Virus record (IMG/VR): IMGVR_UViG_3300013901_000011
Coordinates: 28,923 to 92,922 of that record
Origin: a virus
Length of the DNA stretch: 64,000 bases
Strand: one strand, 5' to 3'
Of this stretch, positions 8,991-56,020 are shown one piece after another. The notes under the pieces are model-generated. The model worked only from the letters and a program-made list of their open reading frames with translations, made no database searches and had not been told where the DNA came from. The number at the start of each line of letters is the position of its first letter. Position 1 is the stretch's first letter. A program made the position numbers and the translations under genes.

Positions 8991-10935
8991 AGTATTTTTC
9001 TTTGAAATCTTTTTCCGACAAGATGGGGATACCCAATTTTTTGGCAGAAACATTCTTTGAACTAGAACTATTAACATCATTATTAATCAGAATATTAGTA
9101 TTCTTGCTAACTGAACCCACTACCTGACCGCCGCAAGATTCAATAAGTTCTTTAAGTTCGTTTCTATTCTTAAACGTATTTAATTTACCAGTAATTACAA
9201 CCTTAATACCAGACAAACTTTGAGTATGCTCTTCTTTTGGCTCTACTTCATTAAAGATGATAATACCTTTATCAACCATTTCTTTAGCTAATACATAATC
9301 AAAATTAATCAAGGCATCATGCATTTCTGGTCCAAAGCCATCCCAAAGATAAAATTTATTCACAGAATTTATATCATTAATAAAATTCTCCCAAGTCTCC
9401 TCTTTTTCAGCTATGATTTTAGCATATCTTCTACCAATTAAAGGAATTCCCAACGCCGCAATATAGTTCTCCAAATTACAGTGCCGTGCAGCTTCAATAG
9501 ATTCAAGCATCTTATCAACTGATTTAACTCCAAAACCATCTTTTTTAATCCATTCTTCCCTATGTTTTTTTAAATTAAAAATATCTTCAGCACAATTAAT
9601 CCAACCCCAATCAATTAATTTTCCAAAAGTAGCTTTAGATATTCCTTTTATATCAAGGCCCTTTTTACCCGCAAAATGTTCAATACGATTAATAAGCTTT
9701 CCATCACAATCTGGGTTCATACAAAAAAGATTAATAACTCCAGAAGCAGAAGTAATCATTTTTGTTTCACTGCCGCAAATAGGACATTTAATAGGTACTT
9801 GAAATACACCAGTAATTTCTTCTACTGGTTTTACTTCTGCTCGCACAATCTGTGGAATAATCATATTCATTTTAGCAACATATACTTTCTGACCTTTATG
9901 CGGAGTTGTTAATGTCTGCATGAGTACACTTACATTGTGCATACTAGCACGAGACACAGTTGTTCCATCTATATCTATTGGGTCAAAAATTGCAATAGGA
10001 GTTAAAATAGAAGTTCTTCCCATACTCCATTCAATATCTTGAAGCGTAGTCTCATATTCTTCATCGTAAAACTTAAAAGCATAAGCCGCTTTTGCATGAT
10101 GTCCAGTTTCACCAAGACTGGCGCCATATGTTACATCGTCAAAACGTCCAACTAAACCATCAGAAGGATAACCTAATTTCTTTGCGGTTTCAATAAGATA
10201 ATCTTTTGCATCCCAATCAAAAGAAGAAGTATAAGGTACAATAAGAAAACCTAACTTTTTCGCTGCATCTAAACGTGCCATAAAAGAATTTTCATCATAA
10301 AAACCTTTTACAACATTCCACACAACAAAAGTTAAATGACGTTTCTTACATTCGTTTGCATCTAAAAGACGAATACTACCAGAAGCAAAATTGCGAGGAT
10401 TCTTATATTCATCTTTAAACTCTTCAAAATCACCTATTGTACAAATAACTTCACCGTCAATGACCAATTCACTATCATAATCAATATACTGCGGGACTGA
10501 AGCCATTGTTAAAATATTATGAAGAACATCTTCGCCAATTTCTCCATCGCCTCTAGTCTCTGCGGAAATCAGTTTACCACCCGCATATCTCAAGCTACAT
10601 GTTAAACCATCAAGTTTGACCATTCCACAAACATCTTTTGAGGAATCTAAACCTGCAAAATAATTAAGAAACTCATCCCAATCTTTAGTTTTATCCAAAG
10701 AAAGCATTTTATGATTATGCTTAACTTTTTTAAGTTCTGATTTAACTTCATATGAAATTTTACCTGTTGGAGAACCTGGTAATGCAATACCAGATTCATC
10801 CTCAAGTTTCTTCAATTTAAAGTATAATTCATCCCATTCTTTATCTGAGACTACTGGATGCCCTTCATCATATGCTTTTGTCCACTCATTTAAAATCTGA
10901 ATCATTTCATACATCTCTTTTTCAATTTTATCCAT
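8977..10935 (-). CDS. ligA: NAD-dependent DNA ligase
   Basis: KxDG adenylation motif VCGMVKLDGLTCSL, Cys4 zinc finger CPICGSE...CMNPDC, C-terminal BRCT-like region; length 652 aa. Confidence 0.85.
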   Translation of the reverse strand: MDKIEKEMYEMIQILNEWTKAYDEGHPVVSDKEWDELYFKLKKLEDESGIALPGSPTGKISYEVKSELKKVKHNHKMLSLDKTKDWDEFLNYFAGLDSSKDVCGMVKLDGLTCSLRYAGGKLISAETRGDGEIGEDVLHNILTMASVPQYIDYDSELVIDGEVICTIGDFEEFKDEYKNPRNFASGSIRLLDANECKKRHLTFVVWNVVKGFYDENSFMARLDAAKKLGFLIVPYTSSFDWDAKDYLIETAKKLGYPSDGLVGRFDDVTYGASLGETGHHAKAAYAFKFYDEEYETTLQDIEWSMGRTSILTPIAIFDPIDIDGTTVSRASMHNVSVLMQTLTTPHKGQKVYVAKMNMIIPQIVRAEVKPVEEITGVFQVPIKCPICGSETKMITSASGVINLFCMNPDCDGKLINRIEHFAGKKGLDIKGISKATFGKLIDWGWINCAEDIFNLKKHREEWIKKDGFGVKSVDKMLESIEAARHCNLENYIAALGIPLIGRRYAKIIAEKEETWENFINDINSVNKFYLWDGFGPEMHDALINFDYVLAKEMVDKGIIIFNEVEPKEEHTQSLSGIKVVITGKLNTFKNRNELKELIESCGGQVVGSVSKNTNILINNDVNSSSSKNVSAKKLGIPILSEKDFKEKYFDFL

Positions 10936-20662: not shown

Positions 20663-22204
20663 TTATTCATTTACATCTGTTTCTTTGAAAGACTCAATAG
20701 CTTTTGTTCCAAGAACACCAGCTAAAAGAGATTTAACATCAATACCAAGAGATTCACTTAATCCCTCAGATACCTGAGTTACATTTGTCATAATATCTCC
20801 TGCTAGTTTGGAAGTATCTCCACCAAGCATTACAATTTTATCAACGTTTGTATACCCTTTACCAACAGCCTCAGCAATAGCAGGTAACTGCTCGAAGTAA
20901 AGTTTGAGTGCCTGCAACTGCATGTCCTGCTTAGCGGCCTCGCCATACTGTTTCATAGCTTCTGCTTTCTTCTGAAGACCTTCAGCCTCAGCTTCAAGTT
21001 TTGCTCTAATTGCGGCAGCTTCTGCCTCACCTTTTGCTCTAGCTGCAGCCGCATCAGCTTCACCCTGTGCTTTTACTGCATCCGCAAGTGCTTTCTTAGC
21101 TTCAGAATCTCTCTGTGCTTCTGCAAGAGACGCTTCTGCCTGTTTTGTTCTCTCGAACAACTCAGCTTCAGATTTCTTCTGAGTTTCATACAGTTTTGCA
21201 TCAGCTCTCTGCTGTGCTGCATATTTTTCAGCTTCTGCGGTTTTCTTAACTTCAGCTTCCAGAGCACGTTCTTTAATAGCTACTTCTCTCTCTTTTAACT
21301 CAATCTGTTTCTCTTGACGAGCAATGTCTGCTTCAGTAGCAGCAACGTCTTTAATCTGACGCTGTTTCTCATCCTCGATAGCTTTTGCTGCATCAGCCTG
21401 CGCTTTGCGGGTATCCGCACTTTTCTTTAAATCTGCCTGTTTGATTTCAAATTCGTTGTTACGAACTGCAATCTGTTCAGCAGCTGCAACCTTAGCATCA
21501 TTAGCTTCTTTGGAGTTCTGAGCTTCTGCGATAGCTACTTCTCTTTCAGCATTGGATTTTGCAATAGCGGCGTTTTTAGAAATCTGCGCCATATTGTCCT
21601 GACCAAGAGCAGTGATAAGATTTTTCTCATCTTCTAACTTCTGAATATTACAGGATTCAATCCAAATACCAAGAGCGTTCATGTCTTTCTGCGCTTTTGC
21701 CTGAACTTCATCTCCAAAGGCTTTACGGTCATTACATAACTGTTTTAATTCCTGGGTTCCAATAATTTCTCGCATATTACCCTGTAAAGAATCCTGTAAA
21801 GACTGTTCAATCTGCTCTTTAGACATATTAAGGAAGTTCTTCATTGCTGCGGCAACCATCTCAGGTGTAATACCTTTTTCTTCATCATTGAGGTCATTCT
21901 CAGTAAGAACTCTTACTTTTGCTACTGCGTCAATGTTTACACCAATAAAGTCTTTAGTTGGAATATAACCATTTGTTTTGATGTCAATAGACATCTGACG
22001 CAAGGTTAAGGTATCCATTCTTTCAAAGAAAGGAATCTTAATACCGGCTTTACCAATCAGGATTCGAGGCTCTTTGTGAAAACCAGAAATAATGTAAGCT
22101 GTATCCGGCGGAGCTTTAACATATCCTGAAGCAATTACTGCGATAATGACAACCGCAAGTAAAACAAAAGGTACAAACGGTAAGATAGTTGTTAGAAAAT
22201 TCAT
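20663..22204 (-). CDS. SPFH/band-7 (flotillin-like) membrane protein
   Basis: N-terminal TM helix, SPFH core (YVKAPPDTAYIISGF...), long EA-rich coiled-coil typical of bacterial flotillins (FloT/YuaG-like). Confidence 0.75.
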   Translation of the reverse strand: MNFLTTILPFVPFVLLAVVIIAVIASGYVKAPPDTAYIISGFHKEPRILIGKAGIKIPFFERMDTLTLRQMSIDIKTNGYIPTKDFIGVNIDAVAKVRVLTENDLNDEEKGITPEMVAAAMKNFLNMSKEQIEQSLQDSLQGNMREIIGTQELKQLCNDRKAFGDEVQAKAQKDMNALGIWIESCNIQKLEDEKNLITALGQDNMAQISKNAAIAKSNAEREVAIAEAQNSKEANDAKVAAAEQIAVRNNEFEIKQADLKKSADTRKAQADAAKAIEDEKQRQIKDVAATEADIARQEKQIELKEREVAIKERALEAEVKKTAEAEKYAAQQRADAKLYETQKKSEAELFERTKQAEASLAEAQRDSEAKKALADAVKAQGEADAAAARAKGEAEAAAIRAKLEAEAEGLQKKAEAMKQYGEAAKQDMQLQALKLYFEQLPAIAEAVGKGYTNVDKIVMLGGDTSKLAGDIMTNVTQVSEGLSESLGIDVKSLLAGVLGTKAIESFKETDVNE

Positions 22205-22257: not shown

Positions 22258-22824
22258 CTACATAGCTCTTTGTTCGTTAAATTTTGCTTTCATATCTTCA
22301 ATAATTGTATCTAAAGAAACTGGAAAGCAATTATGAGCATCAACTGCTACGTTATAAAGATATGGAATATTTTCATAAAATTTTTCTTTTGAATGTGTGT
22401 GTCCCGAAATCCCGCAGGTAACTTGATGAAGAGATTCAATTTCTCCATTACTTGTTACTGTTGGATAATGGCTTAAATAAAAATGATATTTTCTATATTT
22501 AAGCATCATAGCATATCCTTCATCAATAATGCCGATTTCAGAGTAAAGGCGGCATCGAGTCTGGGTGTCATGATTTCCATGAATGAAATGTTTAATTCCA
22601 TTTAATTGCTGCAAACATTCAAGACCATGTTCATTGTCATTTAACATTAAATCTCCTAAAAGATATAAGTCATCTTCTGGAGTTACGATTGAATTGCAAT
22701 TTTTAATAATTGCTTTATCATGTTCTTCAATCGAAGTAAAACCTCGTGCTTCATAGACAAATGGTTTTGAATGGCCCAGGTGTAAATCACTCATCAGGTA
22801 AATCAACTGTAACGCCTCCTTCAT
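22258..22824 (-). CDS. calcineurin-like metallophosphoesterase
   Basis: DLHLGH, GDLMLND, GNHD, GHTH motifs; stop/start overlap (ATGAGTGA) with upstream kinase gene. Confidence 0.65.
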   Translation of the reverse strand: MKEALQLIYLMSDLHLGHSKPFVYEARGFTSIEEHDKAIIKNCNSIVTPEDDLYLLGDLMLNDNEHGLECLQQLNGIKHFIHGNHDTQTRCRLYSEIGIIDEGYAMMLKYRKYHFYLSHYPTVTSNGEIESLHQVTCGISGHTHSKEKFYENIPYLYNVAVDAHNCFPVSLDTIIEDMKAKFNEQRAM

Positions 22825-23320
22825 TTACTCGAATAATTGCTGAATATTTATACTTCTCAATAAAAGTAGGTTTCTCGAACTGCTCATTCATTCTACGAAT
22901 AACACTTCGTGGAACATAAGCAAGTTTATCGTCTCTCCTTAGTTCATTTCTTTGCAAACAAGTTTCAAGAAGATTTTCAAAACTTATTGGAACAATTCTT
23001 ACATTATCAAGATTTAAACTATCAAGTAATTTATTTCTTGATTTCTGCGTAAGTTGTGTAGCATCTGCTATAATATAATCAACACCTTCATTAATGTATT
23101 TCTGAATAGTTTCAATATATTCTTTCCAAACTTCTTTTTCTCTATCAAAATACTGAGAGTTTTCATCTTCTTGAAGTTTAGCAAAACGAATAATATCTCT
23201 TGATACTATTTCAAGTTCATAATCACCTTTTAAGTATTGCTTTGCATTTTCTTTTGAGTCGCGGAACCAAGTAGATTTTCCAGAACCAGGAATTCCGCAT
23301 CCAACATATAAAGTTGTCAT
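22787..23320 (-). CDS. P-loop polynucleotide kinase-like protein
   Basis: Walker A GCGIPGSGKST at N-terminus, ~177 aa, translationally coupled to a phosphoesterase (split Pnkp-like arrangement). Confidence 0.55.
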   Translation of the reverse strand: MTTLYVGCGIPGSGKSTWFRDSKENAKQYLKGDYELEIVSRDIIRFAKLQEDENSQYFDREKEVWKEYIETIQKYINEGVDYIIADATQLTQKSRNKLLDSLNLDNVRIVPISFENLLETCLQRNELRRDDKLAYVPRSVIRRMNEQFEKPTFIEKYKYSAIIRVNEGGVTVDLPDE

Positions 23321-23658: not shown

Positions 23659-24339
23659 TTATACTTTGAAATAAATGGTTTCAAAAGTGTCAAGGTCTAA
23701 AAGAGCTACTGTATTAGTCCAAAAAGAACCGCAATCAATATCAATTTTATGACCAAGAGCATATGTATATACATATGGTTCTGATTCATCATCTACATCT
23801 GCGACATAGCACCAAGGTGTATGACCGTGCACTACATATACGTCAGAAAACTCTTTAACATCAAAAGCATCATGAATATGCTTTCTATCCCAGATAAAGT
23901 CAGTAAATTTAGAACCAGGAGTAAAACCAGCATGTGACATTATAACAATTTTGCCATCTTTGCGGTGATAGGTTGCGGTTTTCTGTAAGCCATTGATTTT
24001 GCGGCACCAGGTTAAATCTGCCCCATCTGCTTCCCATTCAGCACAAGTTAATTCTCCACCATTTTTAGTATGAAGATAATAATTATCGCCGCAAAAACTT
24101 CCATATTCTGCATAGTCATAAATACTTCTAGCTAGCATATCCTCATGGTTTCCTTTAAGGAAAATAAACTGCGGGTCATAATAAATTGATTTAAAACATT
24201 TCCAAGGTTCTGGACCACGGTCAACTGCGTCACCTAAGAAATATACTTTATCTTCTGGACCGATAAAGTTTTTAATTTTTTCATAAAGACCATAAACTCC
24301 ATGAATATCTGAACAACAATAAGTACTCATTCCAATCAC
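23659..24339 (-). CDS. PPP-family metallophosphoesterase (lambda phosphatase/ApaH-like)
   Basis: GDAVDRGP, GNHE, HAG, GHT motifs. Confidence 0.65.
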   Translation of the reverse strand: MIGMSTYCCSDIHGVYGLYEKIKNFIGPEDKVYFLGDAVDRGPEPWKCFKSIYYDPQFIFLKGNHEDMLARSIYDYAEYGSFCGDNYYLHTKNGGELTCAEWEADGADLTWCRKINGLQKTATYHRKDGKIVIMSHAGFTPGSKFTDFIWDRKHIHDAFDVKEFSDVYVVHGHTPWCYVADVDDESEPYVYTYALGHKIDIDCGSFWTNTVALLDLDTFETIYFKV

Positions 24340-24519: not shown

Positions 24520-24566
24520 CCTTTAATTTATATATATATTATATATTATTTATAATAAAAAATCAA
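24520..24566 (-). promoter_or_regulatory. conserved phage promoter (TTGATT-N17-TATAAT) plus conserved leader
   Basis: Minus strand TTGATTTTTTATTATAAATAATATATAATATATATATAAATTAAAGGGAGG. Confidence 0.5.
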
Positions 24567-25753: not shown

Positions 25754-25811
25754 ATTTATCTTCTCCTTTTTATTATATATAAATAATATAATAAAAAGAG
25801 CAATAAATCAA

Positions 25812-26144
25812 TTATTGCTCCTTATAGTTTTTTACCAAGATTTTATAAATTTCATTACAACGTATAAAATCCTCAGAATTTCCACCATTATCAGGATGGG
25901 TATTTTTTAATGCAATTTTCATAAACTTTAATGTATCTTTCGGTAATACTTTGCCCTTTTTTAAATCTGTTTGCGGCATTGTGTTCTGAAATCTTAATTT
26001 TGAATTTAAAACTTCAAGAGCATATATATGACTTTTTAAAGTTCTATTTTCTATTTTTAAAGTTTCATTTTCTCCTAAGCAGCTCATAAGAAGACCTAAA
26101 TTTACTACTAGAATAAATAAGAGCAAAGTAATAATAATTTTCAT
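25812..26144 (-). CDS. J-domain (DnaJ-like) protein with N-terminal TM/signal segment
   Basis: C-terminal LKNTHPDNGGNSEDFIRCNEIYKIL matches J-domain HPD helix pattern. Confidence 0.45.
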   Translation of the reverse strand: MKIIITLLLFILVVNLGLLMSCLGENETLKIENRTLKSHIYALEVLNSKLRFQNTMPQTDLKKGKVLPKDTLKFMKIALKNTHPDNGGNSEDFIRCNEIYKILVKNYKEQ

Positions 26145-26178: not shown

Positions 26179-27561
26179 TTACATTTCACTCAGCAAATCT
26201 TCAGATACATTATCAGTTTCTCCAGAAGCTTCAGCCTGAGCCACAGCAATTCCAGATAAACATTTAAAGTCATAATTTTTGTGCTTATATGCGGCAAATC
26301 CTGGACGATTCAGAATTCTGCATACAACACCTTCCCGCACATGAGTTTTACCTACTGGGTCTGGACCATCATAGTATTTCTCTGCGATTTCTTTAATATA
26401 TTCTCCTGGATTTACTTCCTCTGGAATAAAGCCTCTCCACAGAAGTGGAACACATTTAACTCCCATCTGTTCACAACGATAACGCATAAAGTCTGGAGTA
26501 TATTCTACTACATCACCATCTTCATTTGTAGTTGTCATACGGTAAACGTATAAATCAGATTTTTTGTTATCTGGGTCACAGCCATAAGAGAATACAGTTT
26601 CTTCTCCATACTGTTTGATAAATTCTTTATTATTTAACTTTTTATTGCTAGCTTTTGGCATGATTGGAACACCATCATCAGTAAAACCAACAATTTCATA
26701 ATAAACAGTTTCGTCTTTATGAAGTTTTCCCTCAAAGACTTTTTCGTGCTTTTCTCTAAACTCATTGGAGCCATAAAAACCACCATCGAAGGAATCTAAT
26801 ACGGTTCTGCGGGTTCCAGATACAAGACCCCAATCGTATTTAGGTTTGCTATGCTTATCGAAGTAAGCAACCATAGCTTTCTGCAATTTATTGAGTTTTC
26901 TATCTCGGTCTTTAATTTCACAGAAAACCGCAAGTACATTTGTTGGAACAATATCCACTAATCTTGGTAGATATCCAGTTCTACCAGAAGTACCGTGCAT
27001 TTTAAGAGTAATCTCCACAAGGTCACCATTTTTAAAAGCTCCCATATTATAAGCAAGCTGCTCTGTGTCAGCATGTTCAACAAAAAGTGGAGCGATTGGT
27101 ACTTTCTTTTTGCGGGTTTTATTTACTCTATTATCAGCAGAGTGATGTTTGCGGATAGGAATATATTTCTTACAAATTTCATGTCCATTCAAAGTAGTAA
27201 CAGTATCACCAATATTGAGTTCGTCAAGGTTGATTCCTGTATAAACTACACATTTAAGAGGAAGAAACAAGCCATCAGATTTTTCACCTCTTAACCGCAC
27301 AGCAGTAACATTTCTTTTCTTTGGGTCCATATATCCAGTATCTGGAGTACCATCTGGTTTCTTTCTCAGGAGATGATTCTCAAGGCAAAATTCCTCAGAA
27401 AGCTGAAGGTCTACTGGAAAATAAATACCAATCTCACCCATAGTAATATCAAGAGAAACGCAAGTGTCATTTCCAAAGAAAGTAGCAATATTTAATCGGT
27501 CAGCATTTGGATGTTTTCTCAGTTCATTTACTTTTACTACATAACCGCAATGTTCAGACAT
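26179..27561 (-). CDS. ATP-dependent RNA ligase (Rnl2-like KxHG nucleotidyltransferase) with N-terminal tRNA-binding OB-like domain
   Basis: N-terminal KHPNADRL motif typical of Trbp111/EMAP-II tRNA-binding fold; ITLKMHGTSG resembles Rnl2 motif I KxHG. Confidence 0.5.
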   Translation of the reverse strand: MSEHCGYVVKVNELRKHPNADRLNIATFFGNDTCVSLDITMGEIGIYFPVDLQLSEEFCLENHLLRKKPDGTPDTGYMDPKKRNVTAVRLRGEKSDGLFLPLKCVVYTGINLDELNIGDTVTTLNGHEICKKYIPIRKHHSADNRVNKTRKKKVPIAPLFVEHADTEQLAYNMGAFKNGDLVEITLKMHGTSGRTGYLPRLVDIVPTNVLAVFCEIKDRDRKLNKLQKAMVAYFDKHSKPKYDWGLVSGTRRTVLDSFDGGFYGSNEFREKHEKVFEGKLHKDETVYYEIVGFTDDGVPIMPKASNKKLNNKEFIKQYGEETVFSYGCDPDNKKSDLYVYRMTTTNEDGDVVEYTPDFMRYRCEQMGVKCVPLLWRGFIPEEVNPGEYIKEIAEKYYDGPDPVGKTHVREGVVCRILNRPGFAAYKHKNYDFKCLSGIAVAQAEASGETDNVSEDLLSEM

Positions 27562-27584: not shown

Positions 27585-28418
27585 TTATTTACTTGTAATA
27601 AACCAATATTTATCACAATATTTTTTCTTCTGAGCAGCAGCATTACGAATTTTATTCATAATTCTGTTATGTGTTGCTTCTGTAATGATAATTTTATTTT
27701 TACCATGATTCATTTCATGTGTAATAAGATATTCAGCGGTATCAAATAAAGAATCAAATCCTTTATAAACCTTTTTCCCTTTCTTATCAAGGCTGATAAA
27801 AACTTTGTGTGAATCTTTTTTCATATCTATATAAGTTTCAACCGGTCCTTCTTCAATAGTATTTTCAACTCTATACTCAGCTAATTCCGCGCAAGTATTA
27901 TCAATAGGAGTAGATTCTACTTTATCAAATACATATTTCAGAAGGCGAGCATCATCAAGTGCATTATGATTTTGCTCAATTTCATTTCCACGAATATAAT
28001 TAGCAATTTTTCCAAGATTAATTGGTTTAATTAAACCATAATGCACTTTTACTTTTGGTGCATAGTCAGTTAAACTAGACTTAATGTAACTTAACATTGC
28101 CCCTGCTTTAAAATTTGTAGACCTTTTAATATTGGCTTTGAGAAACTGCACGTCAGTATTACCATAACAATAAAATACATTCTGTTCATTTGGAGATTTT
28201 TCCATACACCAATCGAATAAATCAGAAAACACTTCATTTGGTAAAGCTGCGTCTACAAGCATTTCATTTGTAATGCCTGTTAAATCAGTGATAAATTTAG
28301 TAATCTTTCCTTCTGGTTTTACTAAAGAATAAAATGTATCTCCATTCTCATTAATGCATCCAACAGAGATAATTTCATTTGTAAACTGTGCTGCCTCAAA
28401 GTCAATAAAAAAATTCAT
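27585..28418 (-). CDS. DEDDh 3'-5' exonuclease (DnaQ/RNase T-like)
   Basis: Exo I FIDFEA, Exo III HNALDDARLL. Confidence 0.65.
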   Translation of the reverse strand: MNFFIDFEAAQFTNEIISVGCINENGDTFYSLVKPEGKITKFITDLTGITNEMLVDAALPNEVFSDLFDWCMEKSPNEQNVFYCYGNTDVQFLKANIKRSTNFKAGAMLSYIKSSLTDYAPKVKVHYGLIKPINLGKIANYIRGNEIEQNHNALDDARLLKYVFDKVESTPIDNTCAELAEYRVENTIEEGPVETYIDMKKDSHKVFISLDKKGKKVYKGFDSLFDTAEYLITHEMNHGKNKIIITEATHNRIMNKIRNAAAQKKKYCDKYWFITSK

Positions 28419-28421
28419 AAG

Positions 28422-29246
28422 TTATTCCGCCTTTTCTTTTTTCTTTTCTAATTCCTTAAATACTTCTACTGCTTTCTGGTAATTATCTCCATGTACTGAA
28501 TCTGGAATTGCATATATTACCTGTTTAAAATTTTTTCTTTCATCGGCAAGATACTTATTAAACAAAGTAATAACTTCTGTTGCATCCTGACCAAATACGC
28601 CACATCCAAAAGCTCCAAGAATAAGTGTATCTACTCCTTCTCTTGCGGCGATGTCAAGAACAAATTTAATGCGGCTTTCCAAAATTTTGGAATTTTCTTC
28701 CGCAGTAATTCCATATCCATATTTTTTGTTTGGTGTAAGATTTGGAGCTGCACAAGTAATTACATTGATAAACTCTTGGTCATCTCCCTGTTCAAACATA
28801 ATATGTGGAGAAAAAATAGCTCTATTCTCATACATTGCTTTATTAAGATGTTTATTATTCCAATCATAGTAATAATCAAACTCTCTTAATACGTTATATA
28901 AATAAGAATTCTGGCATAAACACTCTTCCTGAGCTCTTGAGCCTTGAAGAAAGCCGCCTCCTGGATTCTTATATGAAGCAAAATTTAAAACACAAATGGT
29001 TCCTTTACCAAAAGTTTTTCTTGCTTTAAAGATTGCTTCAACGCTTCCAACATCCCACAGATAAACTGGCATATTCTCACGATACAAAGGATGTGGAACA
29101 TAAGTATTTCCAGTATAAACATGGCTATTCTTTTTTGCATAAACAATATCTTCTTTATATTTATGAGCCATATCTAAAGTTCTTTTCTTAGCAGTTTCTG
29201 CTCTGCCTTGACGATTACCATCCCAATAATATTTAATTTTGCCCAT
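28422..29246 (-). CDS. bacterial-type poly(ADP-ribose) glycohydrolase-like macrodomain protein (DUF2263/PARG-like)
   Basis: TICVLNFASYKNPGGGFLQGSRAQEE carries the PARG signature GGG-X7-QEE. Confidence 0.6.
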   Translation of the reverse strand: MGKIKYYWDGNRQGRAETAKKRTLDMAHKYKEDIVYAKKNSHVYTGNTYVPHPLYRENMPVYLWDVGSVEAIFKARKTFGKGTICVLNFASYKNPGGGFLQGSRAQEECLCQNSYLYNVLREFDYYYDWNNKHLNKAMYENRAIFSPHIMFEQGDDQEFINVITCAAPNLTPNKKYGYGITAEENSKILESRIKFVLDIAAREGVDTLILGAFGCGVFGQDATEVITLFNKYLADERKNFKQVIYAIPDSVHGDNYQKAVEVFKELEKKKEKAE

Positions 29247-29700
29247 TTAATAACTCCATAACTACTTTATTAATAAGTTTGCCGTCAGCCTTTCCTTTAA
29301 GCTTTGGCATAATATTTTTCATAACCAAACCTTTCATCTTTGGATTAATTGGTTCAGTAACCGCCTGAGAAAGTTCAACTAATTCAGCATTGATGAACTT
29401 TTTAACCTCGTCTTCAGACATCTGCTTCGGCGCAATCTCATTAATATATTTCATGTTTTCTTTGTACATATTAAGTAAATCTGTACGGTTTGCAGGACAA
29501 GTATCAATCTGTTCCTGGCAAGTTTTTTTACATTTCAAAATAGCTGCATCAACAATCTCTTCTGTAATGTTGTCCTTGCATTTCTTCTCGATTGCCATAT
29601 TTTTGGTACAAGTCACGATATCTGCAATTACAGCTTTTTTAACTCGATTTTGCTGCTTCATACTATCAGTCAAATCTTTCATCAACTTCTCGAAAGTCAT
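29233..29700 (-). CDS. GatB/YqeY-domain protein
   Basis: C-terminal MPKLKGKADGKLINKVVMELL matches the YqeY consensus MPKVKGRADGKLVNQIV. Confidence 0.7.
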   Translation of the reverse strand: MTFEKLMKDLTDSMKQQNRVKKAVIADIVTCTKNMAIEKKCKDNITEEIVDAAILKCKKTCQEQIDTCPANRTDLLNMYKENMKYINEIAPKQMSEDEVKKFINAELVELSQAVTEPINPKMKGLVMKNIMPKLKGKADGKLINKVVMELLNGQN

Positions 29701-29905
29701 CTAAGTCAACCTCCTCTTTTTTCTTTATCTTTTCTACTAAATCTTCATATTCTGCAAGTCGTTTGATATGCTCGAAGAAAGGGCAGGTACTACATATATC
29801 ATCTGCTTTTGGATACATACCGTAAAGGTCATCCATCCACTCCTCTGCACCACATTCATCAATACGACATTCCCAATTATCTTTTGGTCTAGTCATTCGA
29901 CTCAT
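29666..29905 (-). CDS. hypothetical protein
   Basis: 79 aa, CSTCPFFEH motif. Confidence 0.3.
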   Translation of the reverse strand: MSRMTRPKDNWECRIDECGAEEWMDDLYGMYPKADDICSTCPFFEHIKRLAEYEDLVEKIKKKEEVDLDDFREVDERFD

Positions 29906-29963
29906 TTTTATTTTTCCCTTCCTTAACTTTCTATAATTATTATAATATTTTTATAATAAAAAA

Positions 29964-47629: not shown

Positions 47630-48099
47630 ATATTTAAGTCGCGTGAGAAAGATTTGCACTTTCCTAATAGCCTTATCCTCATTCTTTCAGGTTTGCCATT
47701 CTATCATGTTAATCTTAACTAGCCACCAGCTAACACTTCAAGCAATAACCATACTTAAAATTTACTATCCAGCCCTGTCTCAACAGCCCTACCTATTCAC
47801 CTCATCCAAAAGCTAGTCTTAATTTAGAAGCAGAAATAGCTGTGCACGCGATAATGTTTAGTATTTAATGTGCTGTTACGCCAAAAGGGAAATTGTCCTT
47901 ACCAATTACGGGGTGACGCATTTTAACTCTTTACATCCCATCCTTTTACTCTTTTATCTTCAAAAGAAGTTTTTCATACTTTCGGATTTAAAGCCCTACT
48001 CTTTAAAGGATGGCTGCTTTTAAGCCTACCTTTTAAATACTAACAGACTAGAATATGTGCGATTTGAACGCCGCCTCGAGCTCCAGAGAACAATGTCTA

Positions 48100-48870
48100 T
48101 TAAATTTTACTCCATTCTTCATCAGTATACATCTTTATTTCTGTTTTTTTACTAGGTAAATTTTCTGCTTTACACCATTTTCTAATAGCATTATCAGATA
48201 CACCGTATTTTTCTCCTATACTTAAAAAAGATTCATTTCTAATCAAATCTTTCAACTCCTCTCTATTAGGTCTTTCAACAGAACGAGTTGTTTTTGTATA
48301 ACATTCTAAACATAATCCAGATTTAGAACATGAACTAATTTGCTTACCGCAAGAAGAACAATAATAAATTTTTTCTTCTTTCGGTGCAGTTCTTTTTTCA
48401 AAATTTTCTTTTGAAAATATTAGCTCATCAGAATAATTAATTATTTTTTCAATTTCATAATCTTCAGCTTTATTATAATTATTATTACCATTCTGAGGAG
48501 GACTAAAACGTAATGTTTTACTTGTTGAACACTCCTCAACAGGTATTAAATAAACCTGACCTTTATAATAAGTAGCAAAATAATCAATTTGTTCTTTGGT
48601 ATAAAGATGTCTTACTGTTTTTTGAGTGTTTGTTGTTTGAGACATAGTTGTTATCTGAATTGCAGATGTATCATAACCACCCGCAGCTCCTTTTGATTTT
48701 GGATTAGAGCATGATTTACATTGTATTCGTAAAAATTCTCCATTTACATCAGCAACAAAATCATATTTAGCTCCATTACCATAAGGAATAGAAACTTCAT
48801 ATCCCAATTCAATAAATTTTGAAATACATTGCAATTCTACAATATTTCCAATAGATTGCGTATAATTCAT
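48100..48870 (-). CDS. putative homing endonuclease (PD-(D/E)xK-like N-domain plus shared C-terminal DNA-binding module)
   Basis: C-terminal KDLIRNESFLSIGEKYGVSDNAIRKWC is near-identical to the C-terminus of the GIY-YIG endonuclease at 54605-55372; N-terminal YDFVADVNGEFLRIQCK fits D-E-K nuclease core; embedded in tRNA field. Confidence 0.5.
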   Translation of the reverse strand: MNYTQSIGNIVELQCISKFIELGYEVSIPYGNGAKYDFVADVNGEFLRIQCKSCSNPKSKGAAGGYDTSAIQITTMSQTTNTQKTVRHLYTKEQIDYFATYYKGQVYLIPVEECSTSKTLRFSPPQNGNNNYNKAEDYEIEKIINYSDELIFSKENFEKRTAPKEEKIYYCSSCGKQISSCSKSGLCLECYTKTTRSVERPNREELKDLIRNESFLSIGEKYGVSDNAIRKWCKAENLPSKKTEIKMYTDEEWSKI

Positions 48871-49147
48871 AATTCGCTATTCATTTTAATAGATTTGCTT
48901 TCCAAAGCCCGCGTGCTACCATTACACCACATACTCTTTATTGGAGTAGACTATTGCGAACTTGCCGTCTACCATGGCGACTCATTTAATTTATTATCCG
49001 CAGTGACATAACTGTGGAATTGTGTGGGTGCGGTTATGCCTAGGTTCATCCCTTTACCCCGGAGGCTATAGTGCAGGCACCATTTCCTCTGTGTCCCTCA
49101 AACCCTCGTTCGAGTACCGTTCACCGCATTTAATAAAGGTTTTTCAA

Positions 49148-49229
49148 AGCTCGGGGTGGGATTCGAACCCACGAGGGATTTCTCCGGCAGATTACAAATC
49201 TGCTACCATCGCCGCTAGGTGACCCGAGC
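49148..49229 (-). tRNA. tRNA with anticodon TGT (Thr-like) but a 14-nt variable arm
   Basis: Acceptor GCTCGGG/CCCGAGC, anticodon stem-loop GCAGA TTTGTAA TCTGC, variable region CGGAGAAATCCCTC, T-arm GTGGGTTCGAATCCCAC. Confidence 0.55.
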
Positions 49230-49247
49230 AAAAATTAAGGCGAGTTT

Positions 49248-49268
49248 CCTCGCCTAATAAAAACTTTT
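49248..49268 (-). terminator. hairpin GGCGAG-GAAA-CTCGCC with T-run, immediately 5' of tRNA 49148-49229
   Basis: Minus strand GGCGAGGAAACTCGCC-TTAATTTTTG. Confidence 0.4.
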
Positions 49269-50152
49269 AGGCTGAGATTATTGACCTACTTTTATTAGCT
49301 TTGCTTACCGTTGGAAGTAAGTAATCACACGGAAGATTAATCCGTAGCTAATAGCGACACCAGTTTCAGTGGCTCCTGGCAAACTCTTACTACATAGTAT
49401 CATAAATTTCCTTTCGGCACATTCTTCCTTGCGGGATTCAGAGATTGCGGTCTCTTAGAGTTGCACTTAATCGTACTTTTTCACATCTCACCTTGCGAGT
49501 TAAATGCGTGTCCATATTACAGAACAATAAGTCGCTTTTCTCTATGTAGTCATGCACACTTTTGCTGTATAAGTAAATGTTTATCTTTATCTTCTCATAT
49601 AATATTGAAGAAAATATCGGTCTTTTCCGAACAAATCCCCAATGCATCCATGTACATATATTTTTGGATTACGAGGTACACATTTGAGCATCTATACCTT
49701 TTGAGTACAGCCCACTCATCGCAACCCTGCTCGTCTTGCTATCGACTCACTTTAGGCTATTCCAACTATCTTTCGATTTAAGTCAGAAATGACTAATTAA
49801 TATAGCACTTGCTCTTGCGGAACTCGCACCATACAACAACCTTACTATCCACCCATTTCTGAGTTTATGTATAGCACCTTTCACATGATACCCGACCAAC
49901 CATTGTCCTCAGCGGACGCCCCAAGACTTTAGGTTGGAACGTTAGTAAGTATTGGCTTTCCATTACCCCTCTTTAGGAGGAGGCATTTTCATGCTTTATA
50001 CGTGTCACCACGTTTATTTAACGACTTGAAGCCAGCCGATTGGTTTTTTAGACGTTTTCATCGAAGCTATTGCGGCTTTGGATAACCAATAATCCAGATT
50101 CTAAGATGAGGGAATCGAACCCTCAATGACTTTACGCCAACACCAGTCTTAA

Positions 50153-50503
50153 TCATTCATAATCAACTTTATCATACATAGGAGCATAACTCTTAACATG
50201 ATTATGAGTTAAAGTTCCTAATAACATTTCATTATCATTTTCTTCTAAAATATAAATATAAGCTTTGTCTGTTGTAATTGCTTGCCTACCCTTTGGGGCA
50301 GTAAGTAATTTTGCACATTTTTCAACTCTACTCATATCAACAGTATTTACTTCCATGCGTCCACCGCCCGCAACTATTACAAAAATAGGTTTATTATTTT
50401 TGAATTTGGGCTTAGCATCAAGAATTTTTCCTGACCACTTTATGCTATATTCCTCATGGATGTCTGTTACTATAAGATGTGTCTTTACTAAAACTTCAGC
50501 CAT
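50153..50503 (-). CDS. hypothetical protein
   Basis: 116-aa ORF inside tRNA field. Confidence 0.3.
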   Translation of the reverse strand: MAEVLVKTHLIVTDIHEEYSIKWSGKILDAKPKFKNNKPIFVIVAGGGRMEVNTVDMSRVEKCAKLLTAPKGRQAITTDKAYIYILEENDNEMLLGTLTHNHVKSYAPMYDKVDYE

Positions 50504-50707
50504 TTATTTCTCCTTTAATGAATTAAAGAAATTTACTATATCACTACTAACCTGTCTAATCTCAATGTTTTTACCTCTTGGTGCAGATTTAGATTTATGA
50601 AAAGGATGCTGTTCTTTCCAACAACTTAAAAAATGCTTTTGAAGTATTTCTTCCTTTTCAAATTTTTTATTACAAGTTGGACAAATATACATATCTCTTC
50701 TCCTCAT
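50504..50707 (-). CDS. small C2H2-type zinc-finger protein
   Basis: CPTCNKKFEKEEILQKHFLSC C-x2-C-x12-H-x4-C pattern. Confidence 0.3.
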   Translation of the reverse strand: MRRRDMYICPTCNKKFEKEEILQKHFLSCWKEQHPFHKSKSAPRGKNIEIRQVSSDIVNFFNSLKEK

Positions 50708-50919
50708 TAAAAGCGGTTAAACCTAATGATGGCACATTAAGCCAACCTAGCTTTAGGTGACAGCCACCTCTGGTGTGCCCTTAGCTTACAAGGACTCATG
50801 CTTCCTGTTGTTTAACGAGGCTATAGCACAAATCAACCTCGGAAATTTTTACGAGTTTAACCTCGGGAAAATCCCGTCCTGCCATAGACACCAAGCCATT
50901 TCCAAAACTTGGCTTTGAA

Positions 50920-51049
50920 CTGGGGTAGCTGGATTCGAACCAGCGTAATGCAGGAGTCATAGAGAATGGAGAGTCTTGAACTCACATCTTAGGTCTTACG
51001 TTTAAACGACATTCCCAAGTCCTGTGCCTTACCGCTTGGCGATACCCCA
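50920..51049 (-). tRNA. tRNA-Pro (TGG)-like gene with ~57-nt insertion in anticodon loop (putative intron)
   Basis: 5' part TGGGGTA-TC-GCC..GGC-A-CAGGA-CTTGGG, then 57 nt, then C-TCCTG, T-arm GCTGGTTCGAATCCAGC, acceptor TACCCCA; total 130 nt. Confidence 0.45.
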
Positions 51050-51269
51050 ATATTCTGAAGCATGAGACTTACCTAGAACGTTCTCTTACAGACAAGCTTC
51101 TGTGCCATCCCCGCGTGTTTCCAGTTTTTGTTGAGTCATGCGGCAGACATACACGGTTTCAAGCCAGGACTCTAATCATTTCGAGATACATTCTGGGTGT
51201 TTGATTAAAAGTCAAATCCAAAATTATTTGCTGTATGTATCTCTTTATATTATATAATTATTATATAAT

Positions 51270-51300
51270 ATTTTAATTTAAAAATCAATTAAAATATTAA
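51270..51300 (-). promoter_or_regulatory. conserved phage promoter directly upstream of insertion-containing tRNA at 51302-51439
   Basis: Plus strand ttaatttaaaaatcaattaaaat, reverse complement TTGATTTTTAAATTAA. Confidence 0.45.
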
Positions 51301-51301
51301 A

Positions 51302-51439
51302 CTGGGGATGTGGGACTCGAACCCACGACACAGCGGTTAATCAGAAGATAAGACTTGAACTTAAATTTCTTCAAAATGAAGCGTATTACTTATACTACTT
51401 CCGCACAGCCGCTTGCTCTACCTACTGAGCTAAACCCCA
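51302..51439 (-). tRNA. tRNA (anticodon region CTGTG, His-like GTG) with ~65-nt insertion in anticodon loop (putative intron)
   Basis: Canonical 5' half TGGGGTT-TA-GCTC-AGTAGGTA-GAGC-A-AGCGG, 72 nt, then CCGCT-GTGTC-GTGGGTTCGAGTCCCAC-ATCCCCA; promoter motif directly upstream at 51275-51300. Confidence 0.45.
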
Positions 51440-51692
51440 ATAAACAAGGTGCATATTTTTATTAAAATTATTTGATTTACAATCAAAGCATTTTCTTAAT
51501 ATCGAATTTATCGAAATATTGCTGTTACGCACCTTTATTTTTATTACATATTTATTATACAATATTTTTTATAAAAAATCAATTTAAGATTTTAGGGTTA
51601 CAGCTAAGTTTTTTATGTGGTTGCTTATCCCACTATTTTTGTCCCTATTCTTATTTTCTTCAAATCTTAAATTTATTATACAATAAATTTAT

Positions 51693-52601
51693 TTAAAAAT
51701 CAAATACTTCCTTTAACTTTTTAGCACGAGTCGGCTGACGAAGTTTTTGCAATGCTTTTGCTTCAATCTGTCGAATACGTTCTTTAGTTAAATCATAAAT
51801 CTTTCCAACTTCTTCAAGAGTCTGCGGTTTACCTGTTTTTAATCCAAAACGATAACGAAGAATATCTCCCTCACGCTCCGGAAGTGTATCAAGAATTTTC
51901 TCAATAATGTTCTGTCTTTCAACTTCAAGATAAGCAGTTGCCGGATTCACACAAGTTGTATCTTCAATAAGAGAAGCAACTGTTGCATCATCATCACTAT
52001 CTCCAAGAGACATATCAAGACTGCCAATATCCGCAGAATATTCCAAAAGCTCTCTAACCTCAGAAACTTTCATATCCATTTCTTTAGCGATTTCCGCAGG
52101 TTTCGGGTCTCTACCAAGCTTCATAGATAATTCTCGCTCAGTTTTCTTTACTTTGCTAATGGATTCAACAATATGTGCGGGAATACGAATTGTTCTACTC
52201 TGGTCAGAAATAGCTCGTGTAATCGCCTGTTTAACCCACCAAGTTCCATATGTTGAAAAACGATAACCTTTTGTGTAATCAAATTTTTCAACAGCTTTCA
52301 TTAAGCCAACATTTCCTTCCTGAATTAAATCAAGAAAAGGAATGCCGCATCCAATATAATGCTTTGCCACAGAAATTACAAGACGTAAATTTGCATTTAC
52401 AAATTCATTTCTTGCTTCCATATCTCCTTCCTGGACTCTTTTGGCTAATTCAAGCTCTCTTTCTTCGGTTAAAAGAGGGTATTTACTTACCTCTTTCATA
52501 TACATTTTTATACTGTTATCACTAATAACAACCTCTTTCTCATTTTTGATTTCTTTTTCTTCATCGTTATTCTCTTCTACAAAATTCTCTAAATCGGTCA
52601 A
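51693..52601 (-). CDS. sigma-70 family RNA polymerase sigma factor
   Basis: Region 2 [41 protein letters not shown], region 4 [27 protein letters not shown], region 1.2-like [15 protein letters not shown]. Confidence 0.8.
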
Positions 52602-52604
52602 TAA

Positions 52605-52672
52605 TTTTTCCTCTCTTTCTTAACTTTGTAAAATTATTATAACATTTTAAAAATAAAAAATCAATAAAGTAA
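52605..52672 (-). promoter_or_regulatory. conserved phage promoter plus leader upstream of sigma factor gene
   Basis: Plus strand tctttcttaactttgtaaaattattataacattttaaaaataaaaaatcaataaag. Confidence 0.5.
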
Positions 52673-52781
52673 TTATAACTCGGCGGGAAATTCCGTGCCT
52701 ATCCCATACGTTAAATTTATTTTCCATTTTGCCTGTAACCTAAATTTACCTTTCACGCTACAACTACTTTATTGAATTAAG

Positions 52782-52854
52782 TGCACCAGGCGGGACTTGA
52801 ACCCGCGGTACCTTGATTAAAAGTCAAGTGCATTAGCCACTGTGCTACTGGCGC
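52782..52854 (-). tRNA. tRNA-Lys (TTT)
   Basis: Acceptor GCGCCAG/CTGGTGC, anticodon stem-loop CTTGA CTTTTAA TCAAG, T-arm GCGGGTTCAAGTCCCGC. Confidence 0.75.
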
Positions 52855-52957
52855 AAATTGCGGATGACGAAACCGCAAGAACCATATGTTGTCATCATTT
52901 GGTGCGAGCCTAGCCAAATACATGGCAGACGAAATTAATTTCGTTTAAGACTCTAAG

Positions 52958-53030
52958 GGTGACCGACGGGGCTTGAACCCGCATAGGGCGGAACCACAAT
53001 CCGCTGCATAGCCATTTCTGCCACAGCCAC
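52958..53030 (-). tRNA. tRNA-His (GTG)
   Basis: Acceptor GTGGCTG/CGGTCAC (two G-U), anticodon stem-loop GCGGA TTGTGGT TCCGC, T-arm GCGGGTTCAAGCCCCGT. Confidence 0.65.
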
Positions 53031-53231
53031 AATAGATTTTGAGGAATTGCACCTCGCTTATTCTCGTAAGAAATAAGGACAACCTATCTTATGTTGTCTA
53101 AAATCTATGACAGTCCAGTTTCTGTCTGTATGCCCCACATTGCCTTCCTTTATTAATATTAGATTTGGCGGAAGACGTGCAAACATACTTTTATCATATC
53201 CTAACCGGTATTGGGTATGAATACTGTTAAA

Positions 53232-53303
53232 CGAGCCTGCGGGGAGTTGAACCCCGGCTTCCGGAGAGACAGTCCGGCACACTAGCCGCTATGTTACAAG
53301 CCC
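53232..53303 (-). tRNA. tRNA-Asp (GTC)
   Basis: Acceptor GGGCTTG/CAGGCTC, anticodon stem-loop CCGGA CTGTCTC TCCGG, T-arm CGGGGTTCAACTCCCCG. Confidence 0.7.
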
Positions 53304-53416
53304 TTAACAAGACAGGTTTTAATTTCGCACTTAAAATCCCCTATTTTACGCTGTAATTATAATTTGAAATTTTGCAGTTCCTGTCTTTAATTTATATATT
53401 TATTATATAATATTTT

Positions 53417-53785: not shown

Positions 53786-53820
53786 AATACATCACTCCTT
53801 ACCTTTTAAATTGTATCCAA

Positions 53821-55917: not shown

Positions 55918-56020
55918 ACCAAAAATGATAACCTTTTTCTTGTTAGAAAATATTTGCTGTTTAAATGTCTTTATTTATTTTGTATATTTATTATATATTA
56001 TTTTTTATAAAAAATCAATG

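Follow-up and report, generated by a model that had tools for sequence, protein, structure and literature searches.

What does a bacterial-type poly(ADP-ribose) glycohydrolase (PARG) do in the genome of a phage? The question is raised by a gene in a 64,000-nucleotide stretch of viral DNA (IMG/VR record IMGVR_UViG_3300013901_000011, positions 28,923 to 92,922), which is called the window here and from whose first letter all coordinates are counted. Bacterial-type PARGs are common and their physiological role is largely unknown; not until 2025 were they reported to de-ADP-ribosylate RNA. We propose, at about even confidence, that the phage enzyme is an RNA de-ADP-ribosylase serving phage RNA/tRNA repair or counter-defence. 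The observations that support this proposal are the family of the protein, its fold, the intact active site, purifying selection on the gene, its operon-like packing and a recurrent linkage to RNA-end enzymes. The gene and two segments of its product are as follows.

28422-29246, minus strand: the PARG gene, an ATG-to-TAA open reading frame (ORF) of 274 amino acids (aa) for a bacterial-type poly(ADP-ribose) glycohydrolase macrodomain
28923-28961, minus strand: catalytic signature GGG-X7-QEE, residues 96-108, located by regular expression and by alignment to 3SIG
28584-28616, minus strand: Gly-rich diphosphate-binding loop GAFGCGVFGQD, residues 211-221, located by alignment to 3SIG

Judged from sequence and from a structural model, the gene product is clearly a bacterial-type PARG (PF10021/TIGR02452/DUF2263). 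The whole protein scored 95.2 bits against Pfam PF10021 PARG_cat_microb (gathering score 23.5; E 6e-27) and 188.7 bits against NCBIfam TIGR02452 (cutoff 50; E 1.4e-55), covering model positions 56-260 of 266. A regular-expression check for GGG-X6-8-QEE with two consecutive catalytic glutamates found the signature as GGG-X7-QEE at residues 96-108 (GGGFLQGSRAQEE); the peptide NFASYKNPGGGFLQGSRAQEE is also present in the 274-aa translation. Residues 74-253 matched PDB sequences of the T. curvata enzyme (TcPARG, 3SIG; E 5.7e-23) and of the D. radiodurans enzyme (DrPARG, 5ZDA-5ZDG; E ~3e-22). In the alignment of Q106-E107-E108 to 3SIG, E107 and E108 corresponded to the catalytic residues E114 and E115 of TcPARG, and the loop LILGAFGCGVFGQD lined up with LVLGAWGCGVFGND of TcPARG (GAFGCGVFGQD versus GAWGCGVFGND), placing F218 on F227; the roles of these three TcPARG residues have been reviewed (PMC8120803). 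Among 40 aligned homologs G96, G97, Q106, E107 and E108 were invariant, as were the loop residues G211, A212, G214, C215, G216, F218 and Q220. From the alignments, the active site is apparently catalytically intact and the enzyme apparently active.

An AlphaFold2 model of the protein built on the 40 homologs reached a predicted local distance difference test score (pLDDT) of 90.4 and a predicted template-modelling score (pTM) of 0.90, with helices at residues 4-40 forming an N-terminal helical extension before the first strand. When the model was compared with PDB using Foldseek, the 13 best matches were all TcPARG or DrPARG (E 4e-18 to 8e-14; template-modelling (TM) score 0.67-0.81), and generic macrodomains ranked below the PARGs (E ~1e-6, TM <0.5). 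TcPARG was the best match both in structure (Foldseek E 3.7e-18, TM 0.78/0.80) and in sequence. Bacterial PARGs have either a C-terminal ribose cap and act as exo-glycohydrolases only (TcPARG type) or an open site with both endo and exo action (DrPARG type); the sequence alignments of the phage protein end ahead of the cap residue. The initial annotation, which had recognized a DUF2263-type PARG from the GGG-X7-QEE motif and had called for a hidden Markov model search, is thus borne out by profile scores above both cutoffs, by homology to solved structures, by the predicted fold and by active-site conservation; the possibility it had raised of a fortuitous motif in a protein with no macrodomain fold is excluded by the family scores, the AlphaFold2 model and the TM scores to solved PARGs. 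Between the window PARG and its three closest orthologs the ratio of nonsynonymous to synonymous substitution rates (dN/dS) was 0.08-0.20, that is, the gene is under purifying selection. Its GC content is 0.33 and its GC content at third codon positions (GC3) is 0.20, equal to the GC3 of GyrA and LigA (0.20); because its composition is that of core genes, the gene is a long-time resident and not a recent insert.

Other members of the macrodomain superfamily were considered and set aside. A canonical eukaryote-type PARG was not returned by the Pfam scan even at E<=1, and baculovirus PARG models matched the phage protein in Foldseek at just E ~1e-5 with TM <0.5. The MacroD/Poa1-type macro family PF01661 scored 13.9 bits (cutoff 22) over residues 181-227 only, and NCBIfam macro equivalogs scored ~14 bits against cutoffs of 215-252. 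As to a DarG-type antitoxin, no PADLOC family matched the protein at E<=0.001, and no DarG/TARG1 entry was among the 50 best PDB fold matches listed. Neither PHROGs nor PADLOC returned a family for the PARG protein.

The initial annotation had also suggested that the enzyme could reverse host ADP-ribosylation, whether of protein, of RNA or of DNA in the manner of DarT. The RNA part of this suggestion fits the gene context and a published activity of the family, both described below; the part concerning DarT-type, base-linked DNA is disfavoured. It would have the enzyme remove ADP-ribose (ADPr) from thymidine or guanosine bases of DarT-modified phage DNA, and the gene does lie in a region of replication and nucleic-acid metabolism. 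Phage-borne orphan ADP-ribosylglycohydrolases directed against DarTG1 also exist, namely the AdfN NADARs (PMC11825919). However, guanosine-ADPr is reversed by NADARs only, and thymidine-ADPr by DarG/TARG1-type macros, Drosophila Parg being inactive on thymidine-ADPr (PMC12879935). Since the phage protein lacks a PADLOC (DarG) match and its fold groups with the PARGs and not with TARG1/DarG, this explanation is in our view very improbable. The likeness to AdfN is one of concept only, that of a phage-borne counter-defence eraser of nucleic-acid ADP-ribosylation (PMC11825919); AdfN has the NADAR fold, not a macrodomain, and the linkage it acts on is at guanine N2 on DNA.

Which genes would be expressed together with PARG? 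The features around it, in the order of transcription, are these.

29939-29967, minus strand: promoter-like site TTGATT-N17-TATAAT, in the gap before the 79-aa ORF, upstream of the PARG block
29666-29905, minus strand: Cys-rich ORF of 79 aa, first gene of the predicted transcription unit, without family match
29233-29700, minus strand: YqeY (GatB/YqeY-domain) protein (PF09424, E 9e-19)
27585-28418, minus strand: DEDDh (RNase T-type) 3'-5' exonuclease (PF00929, E 3e-15; PADLOC DEDDh, 4e-16)
26179-27561, minus strand: Rnl5-family ATP-dependent RNA ligase with N-terminal OB and nucleotidyltransferase domains (weak PF21189 and PF09414 matches)
25812-26144, minus strand: ORF of 110 aa, last gene before the hairpin, without Pfam match
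25795-25823, minus strand: terminator-like hairpin with T-run (12-bp stem, then TTATTAT; a consensus match only)

The motif TTGATT-N17-TATAAT (TTGATTTTT(T)-N-TATAAT) occurs in 20 exact copies in the window, where 0.08 would be expected, and every copy is on the minus strand; they run from 15385 to 63254, most of them intergenic and ahead of gene blocks and tRNAs. It is probably the host-sigma-A-type early promoter of this phage. Downstream of the copy that precedes the PARG block, the next one is at 24538-24566, and the hairpin at 25795-25823 is the probable end of the transcription unit. Between promoter and terminator all genes overlap or are separated by gaps of <=35 nt: the end of YqeY overlaps the start of PARG by 14 nt, a GGAG ribosome-binding site precedes the PARG start codon, the exonuclease starts 3 nt past the PARG stop, and 23 nt separate the exonuclease and ligase genes. 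This packing predicts that a host-type early promoter drives the co-transcription of PARG with the genes for YqeY, the DEDDh exonuclease and Rnl5. A profile of the ligase family matched the Naegleria gruberi RNA ligase (NgrRnl, 5COT) at E 4e-28 across the OB and nucleotidyltransferase domains, and on that match the window ligase is of the Rnl5 type, a clade founded by DraRnl of Deinococcus. The 79-aa ORF was also called as a gene on contigs with an identical PARG. The N-terminus encoded by the 110-aa ORF is hydrophobic, and inspection by eye shows an 'HPD' motif resembling that of J-domains (…ALKNTHPDNGGNSEDF…).

To place this block in a wider setting, 85 viral loci and 80 bacterial-genome loci were sampled and their PARGs grouped at 70% identity into 61 lineages, 16 of them with viral loci, 47 with bacterial-genome loci and 2 with both. 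Neighbour homologs were sought with iterated profiles, single-sequence phmmer being too insensitive, and by unbiased neighbour clustering and Pfam scans. The Pfam scans took in 243 ORFs from twelve other phage loci, with counts drawn from the top 25 families and not tied to individual ORFs. Tpt1 and SIR2 ORFs were located with sequences of E. coli KptA and CobB, which served for positions only, family identity being that given by Pfam. GyrA, DnaB and the sigma factor, tried as synteny controls, lie 15-27 kb from PARG in the window; their lack within 10 kb in other loci is thus of little weight, and they were not used as a statistical baseline.

A gene for Rnl, Thg1, Tpt1 or a nucleotidyltransferase was found within 10 kb of PARG in 9 of the 16 viral and 7 of the 47 bacterial lineages. 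The commonest neighbour was a metallophosphoesterase (within 10 kb in 18 of the 61 lineages), and further companions were the AAA_33 kinase (9 lineages) and the Pol-beta nucleotidyltransferase family (8); for the viral lineages, Rnl was within 10 kb in 7 and DUF2828 in 6. Clustering of the ORFs within 3 kb of PARG placed metallophosphoesterases (8 and 6 lineages) and Thg1 (7) at the top, followed by a nucleotidyltransferase (5), an HD-domain protein (5) and an isochorismatase/nicotinamidase-like protein (4). Phage homologs at ~50% PARG identity carried, in Pfam-annotated contexts, the same gene set in shuffled order, i.e. DUF2828/DUF7788, PARG, (YqeY), Thg1, Metallophos, cREC, YAcAr, RNase_T and the Rnl5 ligase. 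Direct adjacency to PARG varied: Rnl5 followed it in one viral lineage, YqeY preceded it in one lineage and, in reversed order, followed it in another, and Thg1 stood on either side. The scan of 243 ORFs yielded RlaP x4, Metallophos x4, RNA_ligase x2, CCA-adding enzyme x2, AAA_33 x2, HD x2 and Tpt1/KptA, together with an NAD theme (SIR2 x2, LigA x2, NAPRTase, NAD synthase, NMNAT-like enzymes and one ADP-ribosylglycohydrolase (ARH)).

In an Acetatifactor/Lachnospiraceae lineage, Tpt1/KptA stands directly downstream of PARG in six loci, and one locus reads AAA_33 kinase, Thg1, PARG, two other ORFs and Tpt1. Compact operons of one or the other form occur in L091 (6736-10871), L090, L094, L098, L104, L117 and L124. 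We considered that these loci might be prophages and rejected the idea: matches to phage ORFs were limited to PARG, Tpt1 and Thg1, and since the surrounding genes had none the loci look chromosomal. An association of PARG, Tpt1 and Thg1 was not found described in the literature searched.

Two further loci bring a possible source of ADP-ribose and PARG together. On a 158-kb contig from a 'Candidatus Absconditabacterales' metagenome-assembled genome, which may be a large phage, Thg1, SIR2 and PARG follow in a row (L114, 6087-8798), the SIR2 stop abutting the PARG start. In the phage of locus L047 (2783-10783), Tpt1 and SIR2 lie within 7 kb upstream of PARG. Both gene sets are candidate writer-eraser sets.

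What RNA chemistry would such an enzyme perform? Published work has shown that SCO0909 of S. coelicolor and DRB0099 of D. radiodurans, like human PARG, were the sole tested hydrolases to reverse the RNA 2'-OH ADP-ribosylation made by RhsP2 (Lu et al., 2025; PMC11833690). The RhsP2 linkage on RNA is the same C1''-O-2' bond as in poly(ADP-ribose) (PAR), SCO0909 was the most active enzyme on 5'-phospho-ADPr RNA made by Tpt1/KptA, and both SCO0909 and DRB0099 protected E. coli from RhsP2 (PMC11833690). The RNA substrate range of the phage PARG is taken from this work on homologs: by analogy with SCO0909, it may hydrolyze ADP-ribose from RNA 2'-OH groups and from 5'-phosphate. Its identity to TcPARG and SCO0909 is ~25%, and those are cellular, actinobacterial enzymes. 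The PARG-Tpt1 pairs in turn match the 5'-P-ADPr hydrolase activity.

The same study located DRB0099 in a ligase-PARG-phosphatase/kinase operon (DRB0100-DRB0099-DRB0098), in which PARG stands beside an RNA/DNA ligase and an end-healing phosphatase/kinase (PMC11833690). DRB0099 and the phage protein belong to one family, with ~26% identity over the whole fold (E ~3e-22; TM 0.73-0.80), and have the GGG-X-QEE motif and the Gly-rich loop in common. The founding Rnl5 ligase DraRnl is DRB0094 of the same Deinococcus locus. The phage block differs from the Deinococcus operon in adding YqeY and the DEDDh exonuclease, in having its kinase and phosphatases as separate genes 1.5-6 kb off, unlike the fused HD-Pnk of Deinococcus, and in its location in a phage genome beside a tRNA array. 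The phage operon is a close analogue of the Deinococcus arrangement.

The published PARG biochemistry, the analogous operon and the PARG-Tpt1 pairs together lead us to rank RNA de-ADP-ribosylation first. In the mechanism that we propose, (i) host ADP-ribosyltransferase (ART) toxins or defence systems, or else Tpt1/KptA-type enzymes, would be the source of the ADP-ribose; (ii) the phage macrodomain would act as an O-glycohydrolase, using the Glu-Glu of GGG-X7-QEE to remove ADP-ribose from RNA; (iii) the target bond would be at the backbone 2'-OH, i.e. the same C1''-O-2' bond as in PAR, or at a terminal phosphate; and (iv) the cleaned tRNA or other RNA would regain its function, or could then be trimmed and ligated by the enzymes encoded next to PARG, of which Rnl5 would be the nick-sealing RNA ligase. 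Both the use of RNA as substrate in vivo and the identity of the writer are points that we infer.

Several observations weigh against this proposal. A search for a writer (ART, PARP, Tpt1/KptA or sirtuin) came up empty across the 64-kb window and across flanks of ~10 kb beyond its low-coordinate and ~9 kb beyond its high-coordinate end, which leave ~100 kb of genome outside; for Tpt1/KptA and sirtuin, a six-frame hmmsearch of the window gave no match at E<=10. We know of no Clostridia defence system that ADP-ribosylates RNA 2'-OH groups. CmdT, the sole known anti-phage RNA ART, reportedly attaches ADP-ribose at N6 of adenine, a linkage that is not of the PARG type. No recognizable RNA-repair neighbour was found in 7 of the 16 viral and 40 of the 47 bacterial lineages using local profiles, which may miss diverged homologs, and the linkage seen in large phages partly reflects shared ancestry and the functional clustering of early genes. 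Finally, the SIR2, nicotinamidase-like, NAPRTase and NAD synthase neighbours in other lineages fit a role on soluble metabolites equally well.

In that last role the phage PARG would hydrolyze small ADP-ribose derivatives (ADPr-1''-phosphate, ADPr>P after ring opening by cREC/2H, or O-acetyl-ADPr) produced in NAD-dependent RNA repair or sirtuin reactions, detoxifying them and feeding ADP-ribose to Nudix and NAD-salvage enzymes. A related proposal of the initial annotation, that the enzyme processes by-products of an NAD-dependent ligase, has to be abandoned as chemically wrong. Such a DNA ligase is indeed present in the window (8977-10935). The idea fails because NAD+ serves LigA as AMP donor and what is released is nicotinamide mononucleotide (NMN), not ADP-ribose; a by-product role would need Tpt1/KptA or a sirtuin, which are neighbours of PARG in relatives and not in the window. 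The broader clean-up role has been predicted for Macro domains in KptA/sirtuin-based phage RNA repair (PMC7824862, PMC9503650); Tpt1 is directly downstream of PARG in Acetatifactor and both Tpt1 and SIR2 are upstream in the phage of L047; and isochorismatase (nicotinamidase-like), NAPRTase, NAD synthase and NMNAT-like neighbours recur in other lineages. The C1''-O-P bond of ADPr-1''-P would moreover be chemically similar to the 5'-P-ADPr-RNA bond cleaved by SCO0909. Within the window there is a cREC gene, and just outside it one for a Nudix protein.

56021-56362, minus strand: cREC domain protein, distal from PARG, with a predicted role in cyclic-phosphate/ADPr>P processing (PF20274, precomputed on a matching contig; role predicted in PMC7824862 and PMC9503650)

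The Nudix hydrolase is encoded ~6.4 kb beyond the high-coordinate end of the window (precomputed Pfam on matching contigs), and both cREC and Nudix are part of the NAD-ADPr/RNA-repair toolkit. Set against this role, the window itself has neither Tpt1/KptA nor sirtuin and hence no visible source of the metabolites. Processing of Appr-1''-p is known for MacroD/Poa1-type macros, not for PARGs, and the phage PARG is below the Macro threshold (13.9 versus 22 bits); a test of any PARG on such metabolites was not found in the literature. We consider metabolite clean-up unlikely, though with enough in its favour to be kept in mind.

The founding activity of the family, PAR hydrolysis (TcPARG, HaPARG, DrPARG; PMC8120803), suggests a third role, the degradation of poly- or oligo-ADP-ribose on proteins, whose writer would be a PARP-like or ART-based host defence or an ART of the phage itself in a writer-eraser pair. 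Of the ARTs known from viruses, the PARP-like ones belong to the commonest (PMC9503650), and an ARH neighbours PARG in one phage lineage. A PARP/ART Pfam match was, however, found neither in the scanned window ORFs of >=110 aa nor among the top 25 families of the 243 neighbour ORFs, the conserved neighbours of PARG act on RNA ends and not on proteins, and evidence for endogenous PAR in bacteria is sparse (PMC8120803). Protein de-ADP-ribosylation consequently seems to us quite unlikely. The same RNA-end neighbours bear on a fourth role, in which the enzyme would blunt NAD-derived signalling defence by cleaving 1''-2' or 1''-3' glycocyclic ADP-ribose (gcADPR), the TIR signals of Thoeris-type systems. 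Such molecules have ribose-ribose O-glycosidic links (PMC9503650), and Macro domains have been predicted to act on signals of the cyclic ADP-ribose type. No TIR-related or sponge genes are nearby, however, and the anomeric configuration may not suit a PARG, the tested hydrolases having been strictly alpha-specific on thymidine-ADPr; destruction of an immune signal is a most improbable function.

Around the transcription unit lie the candidate members of a wider repair module, along with other genes, as follows.

30791-31543, minus strand: calcineurin-like metallophosphoesterase, candidate RNA-end phosphatase (PF00149, E 1.5e-12)
31545-32324, minus strand: Pol-beta-superfamily nucleotidyltransferase, possibly RlaP-like (GS...DxD motif by eye)
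22787-23320, minus strand: AAA_33/KTI12-type P-loop kinase, candidate polynucleotide kinase (PF13671, E 1e-18)
22258-22824, minus strand: weak Metallophos match (Pfam)
32767-35238, minus strand: MVP-shoulder/Vault_3 protein of 823 aa, candidate scaffold beside the repair block
35356-36693, minus strand: protein of 445 aa and of no known family, candidate scaffold
37069-38637, minus strand: DUF2828/DUF7788 protein, candidate scaffold
20663-22204, minus strand: flotillin/Band_7 protein, on the other side of the repair block
30289-30549, minus strand: protein of 86 aa of the T7 gp5.9 RecBCD-inhibitor family (E 4e-10), four genes upstream of PARG
38693-57953, minus strand: tRNA gene array (21 by ARAGORN, 23 by Rfam), plausible clients of the repair module

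The flanking kinase, phosphatases and nucleotidyltransferase presumably act on RNA; the window block has an RNA ligase one gene away from PARG, the Rnl5 beyond the downstream exonuclease. The RlaP assignment of the 259-aa nucleotidyltransferase was not confirmed, the window copy being without a Pfam match and the PDB profile search giving nothing useful; a member of its family at L012 (13379-14200) had weak Polbeta/NTP_transf_2 matches. At 23659-24339 (minus strand), precomputed Pfam reports Metallophos for a 223-aa protein on contigs with an identical PARG, and the 226-aa window ORF matched no family at E<=0.01. The 86-aa gp5.9-like protein is, from its family match, a likely anti-RecBCD factor. 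The vault- and SPFH-like scaffolds are kept on contigs with an identical PARG. An Rfam scan of the window returned tRNAs only, with no Y RNA or other repair-linked non-coding RNA as a partner.

As a whole, the phage block matches the published syntax of RNA repair, with ligase, end-healing kinase and phosphatases, nucleotidyltransferase, scaffolds and tRNAs; this syntax has been described in jumbo phages (PMC7824862, with the Burroughs and Aravind syntax as cited there). The NAD+-dependent RNA-repair neighbourhoods of jumbo phages (Iyer et al., 2021, 2022) comprise KptA/sirtuin, 2H/cREC, Macro, ligase, kinase, calcineurin-like phosphoesterase, RlaP, Thg1 and CCA enzyme. The window shares with them the ligase, end-healing enzymes, nucleotidyltransferase, an ADPr-processing domain and tRNAs; unlike them, it lacks a detectable KptA/sirtuin, which defines the NAD-dependent branch. 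It has cREC within and Nudix beyond its limits. These surveys treat generic Macro domains and never name the PARG type, the term 'PARG' being absent from the 2022 text.

What kind of phage carries this module? It is a large phage of the gut. The large ORFs of the window are all on the minus strand, and nearly every gene is on one strand. The window encodes DnaB, an AAA_24 protein, an NAD-dependent DNA ligase, GyrA, GyrB and RNase H, as well as a phage tail lysozyme/endolysin-like protein, PhoH-PIN, flotillin, a sigma-70 factor and homing-endonuclease-like genes; the flanks on matching contigs add DnaE, a DHH (RecJ-like) protein, SPbeta YorF/YorH-like proteins and the Nudix protein. The closest relatives are IMG/VR viral contigs of 92-178 kb; near-identical proteins (P0001, 99%) occur on contigs as long as 184 kb, and 10 contigs were seen to carry the exact protein. 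These relatives, together with the phage genes, the tRNAs and the near one-strand coding, support the phage origin that the initial annotation had assumed. When the 6-kb region was compared by megablast with 50,697 phage records, nothing matched, so there is no close sequenced phage relative in GenBank.

More distant relatives are numerous. At least 137 IMG/VR contigs carry relatives of the PARG, and the family, clustered at 50% identity, has 7,601 representatives when matches down to E<=1e-3 are counted and 720 when the limit is E<=1e-30. The top-scoring representative in the 1.84-billion-protein library is P0121 (512 aa), a tandem double PARG with two matched stretches. By tblastn, PARG homologs in GenBank phages are nearly all in huge phages, at 29-39% identity and all unannotated: Lak megaphages (~39%), Bacillus phage G gp114 (29.5%) and two uncultured phages of ~600 kb. 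Viral homologs were also found in BFVD by Foldseek (E 1e-15 to 1e-17), and automatic annotations as 'Microbial-type PARG' or 'TIGR02452' are already on giant-virus and a few phage members. Phage G gp114, the Lak ORFs and the giant-virus proteins belong to the same family as the phage PARG and are uncharacterized; the giant-virus copies differ from the phage PARG in that their hosts are eukaryotes, which have PARPs. In phage G (L010, JN638751.1), gp114 (66154-66984) is ~6 kb from a tRNA cluster, and 3.4 kb beyond it gp122 (70350-70829) is an 'Appr-1-p processing' macro, so that two macrodomain types stand side by side. The nearest cellular homologs are in gut Lachnospiraceae and other Clostridia (40-51% identity), an indication either of the host range or of where the gene came from.

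Within the tRNA array, two matches are from Rfam only, at 50920-51049 (130 nt, with a possible insertion or intron) and, weakly, at 51340-51404; a tRNA-Phe at 41521-41594 has the unusual anticodon AAA, and the stretch of the window from 41 to 58 kb has a low coding density. Two proteins with GIY-YIG endonuclease domains and a PD-(D/E)XK endonuclease are encoded at 7300-8289, 54605-55372 and 48100-48870 (minus strand); all three resemble homing endonucleases and are situated near replication genes and within the tRNA region. On a matching contig another GIY-YIG gene separates two DnaE polymerase fragments.

How far does the finding change the picture? A specialist is unlikely to be surprised by it, and current views are not overturned. 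Published surveys report Macro domains for 56% of jumbo phages and describe phage neighbourhoods of NAD-linked RNA repair (PMC9503650, PMC7824862), so that both are already known, and no new fold, chemistry or architecture is present here. The context of the phage PARG is only partly anticipated, the Deinococcus operon being the published precedent; in the literature searched, no paper was found that characterizes a phage PARG or notes PARG-type macros in RNA-repair operons. The occurrence of a PARG under purifying selection in phage RNA-repair operons with Rnl5, DEDDh, YqeY, Thg1 and phosphoesterases makes a loose idea of anti-ADP-ribosylation specific, and the matching kinase-Thg1-PARG-Tpt1 operons of gut Clostridia, along with the many IMG/VR contigs (at least 137), sharpen the same question. 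The locus offers a concrete and timely test of whether ADP-ribosylation of RNA backbones or ends matters in phage-host conflict. A bolder proposal, which is possible but doubtful, is that phage PARGs form a widespread and unrecognized class of counter-defence enzymes erasing ADP-ribose from 2'-OH groups or phosphate ends of tRNA and other structured RNAs, that the writers are undiscovered RhsP2- or Tpt1-like ARTs of gut Firmicutes, and that YqeY serves as an RNA-binding partner while the exonuclease and Rnl5 complete the repair. If this were true, ADP-ribosylation of the RNA backbone would be a regular front in the conflict between phages and their hosts.

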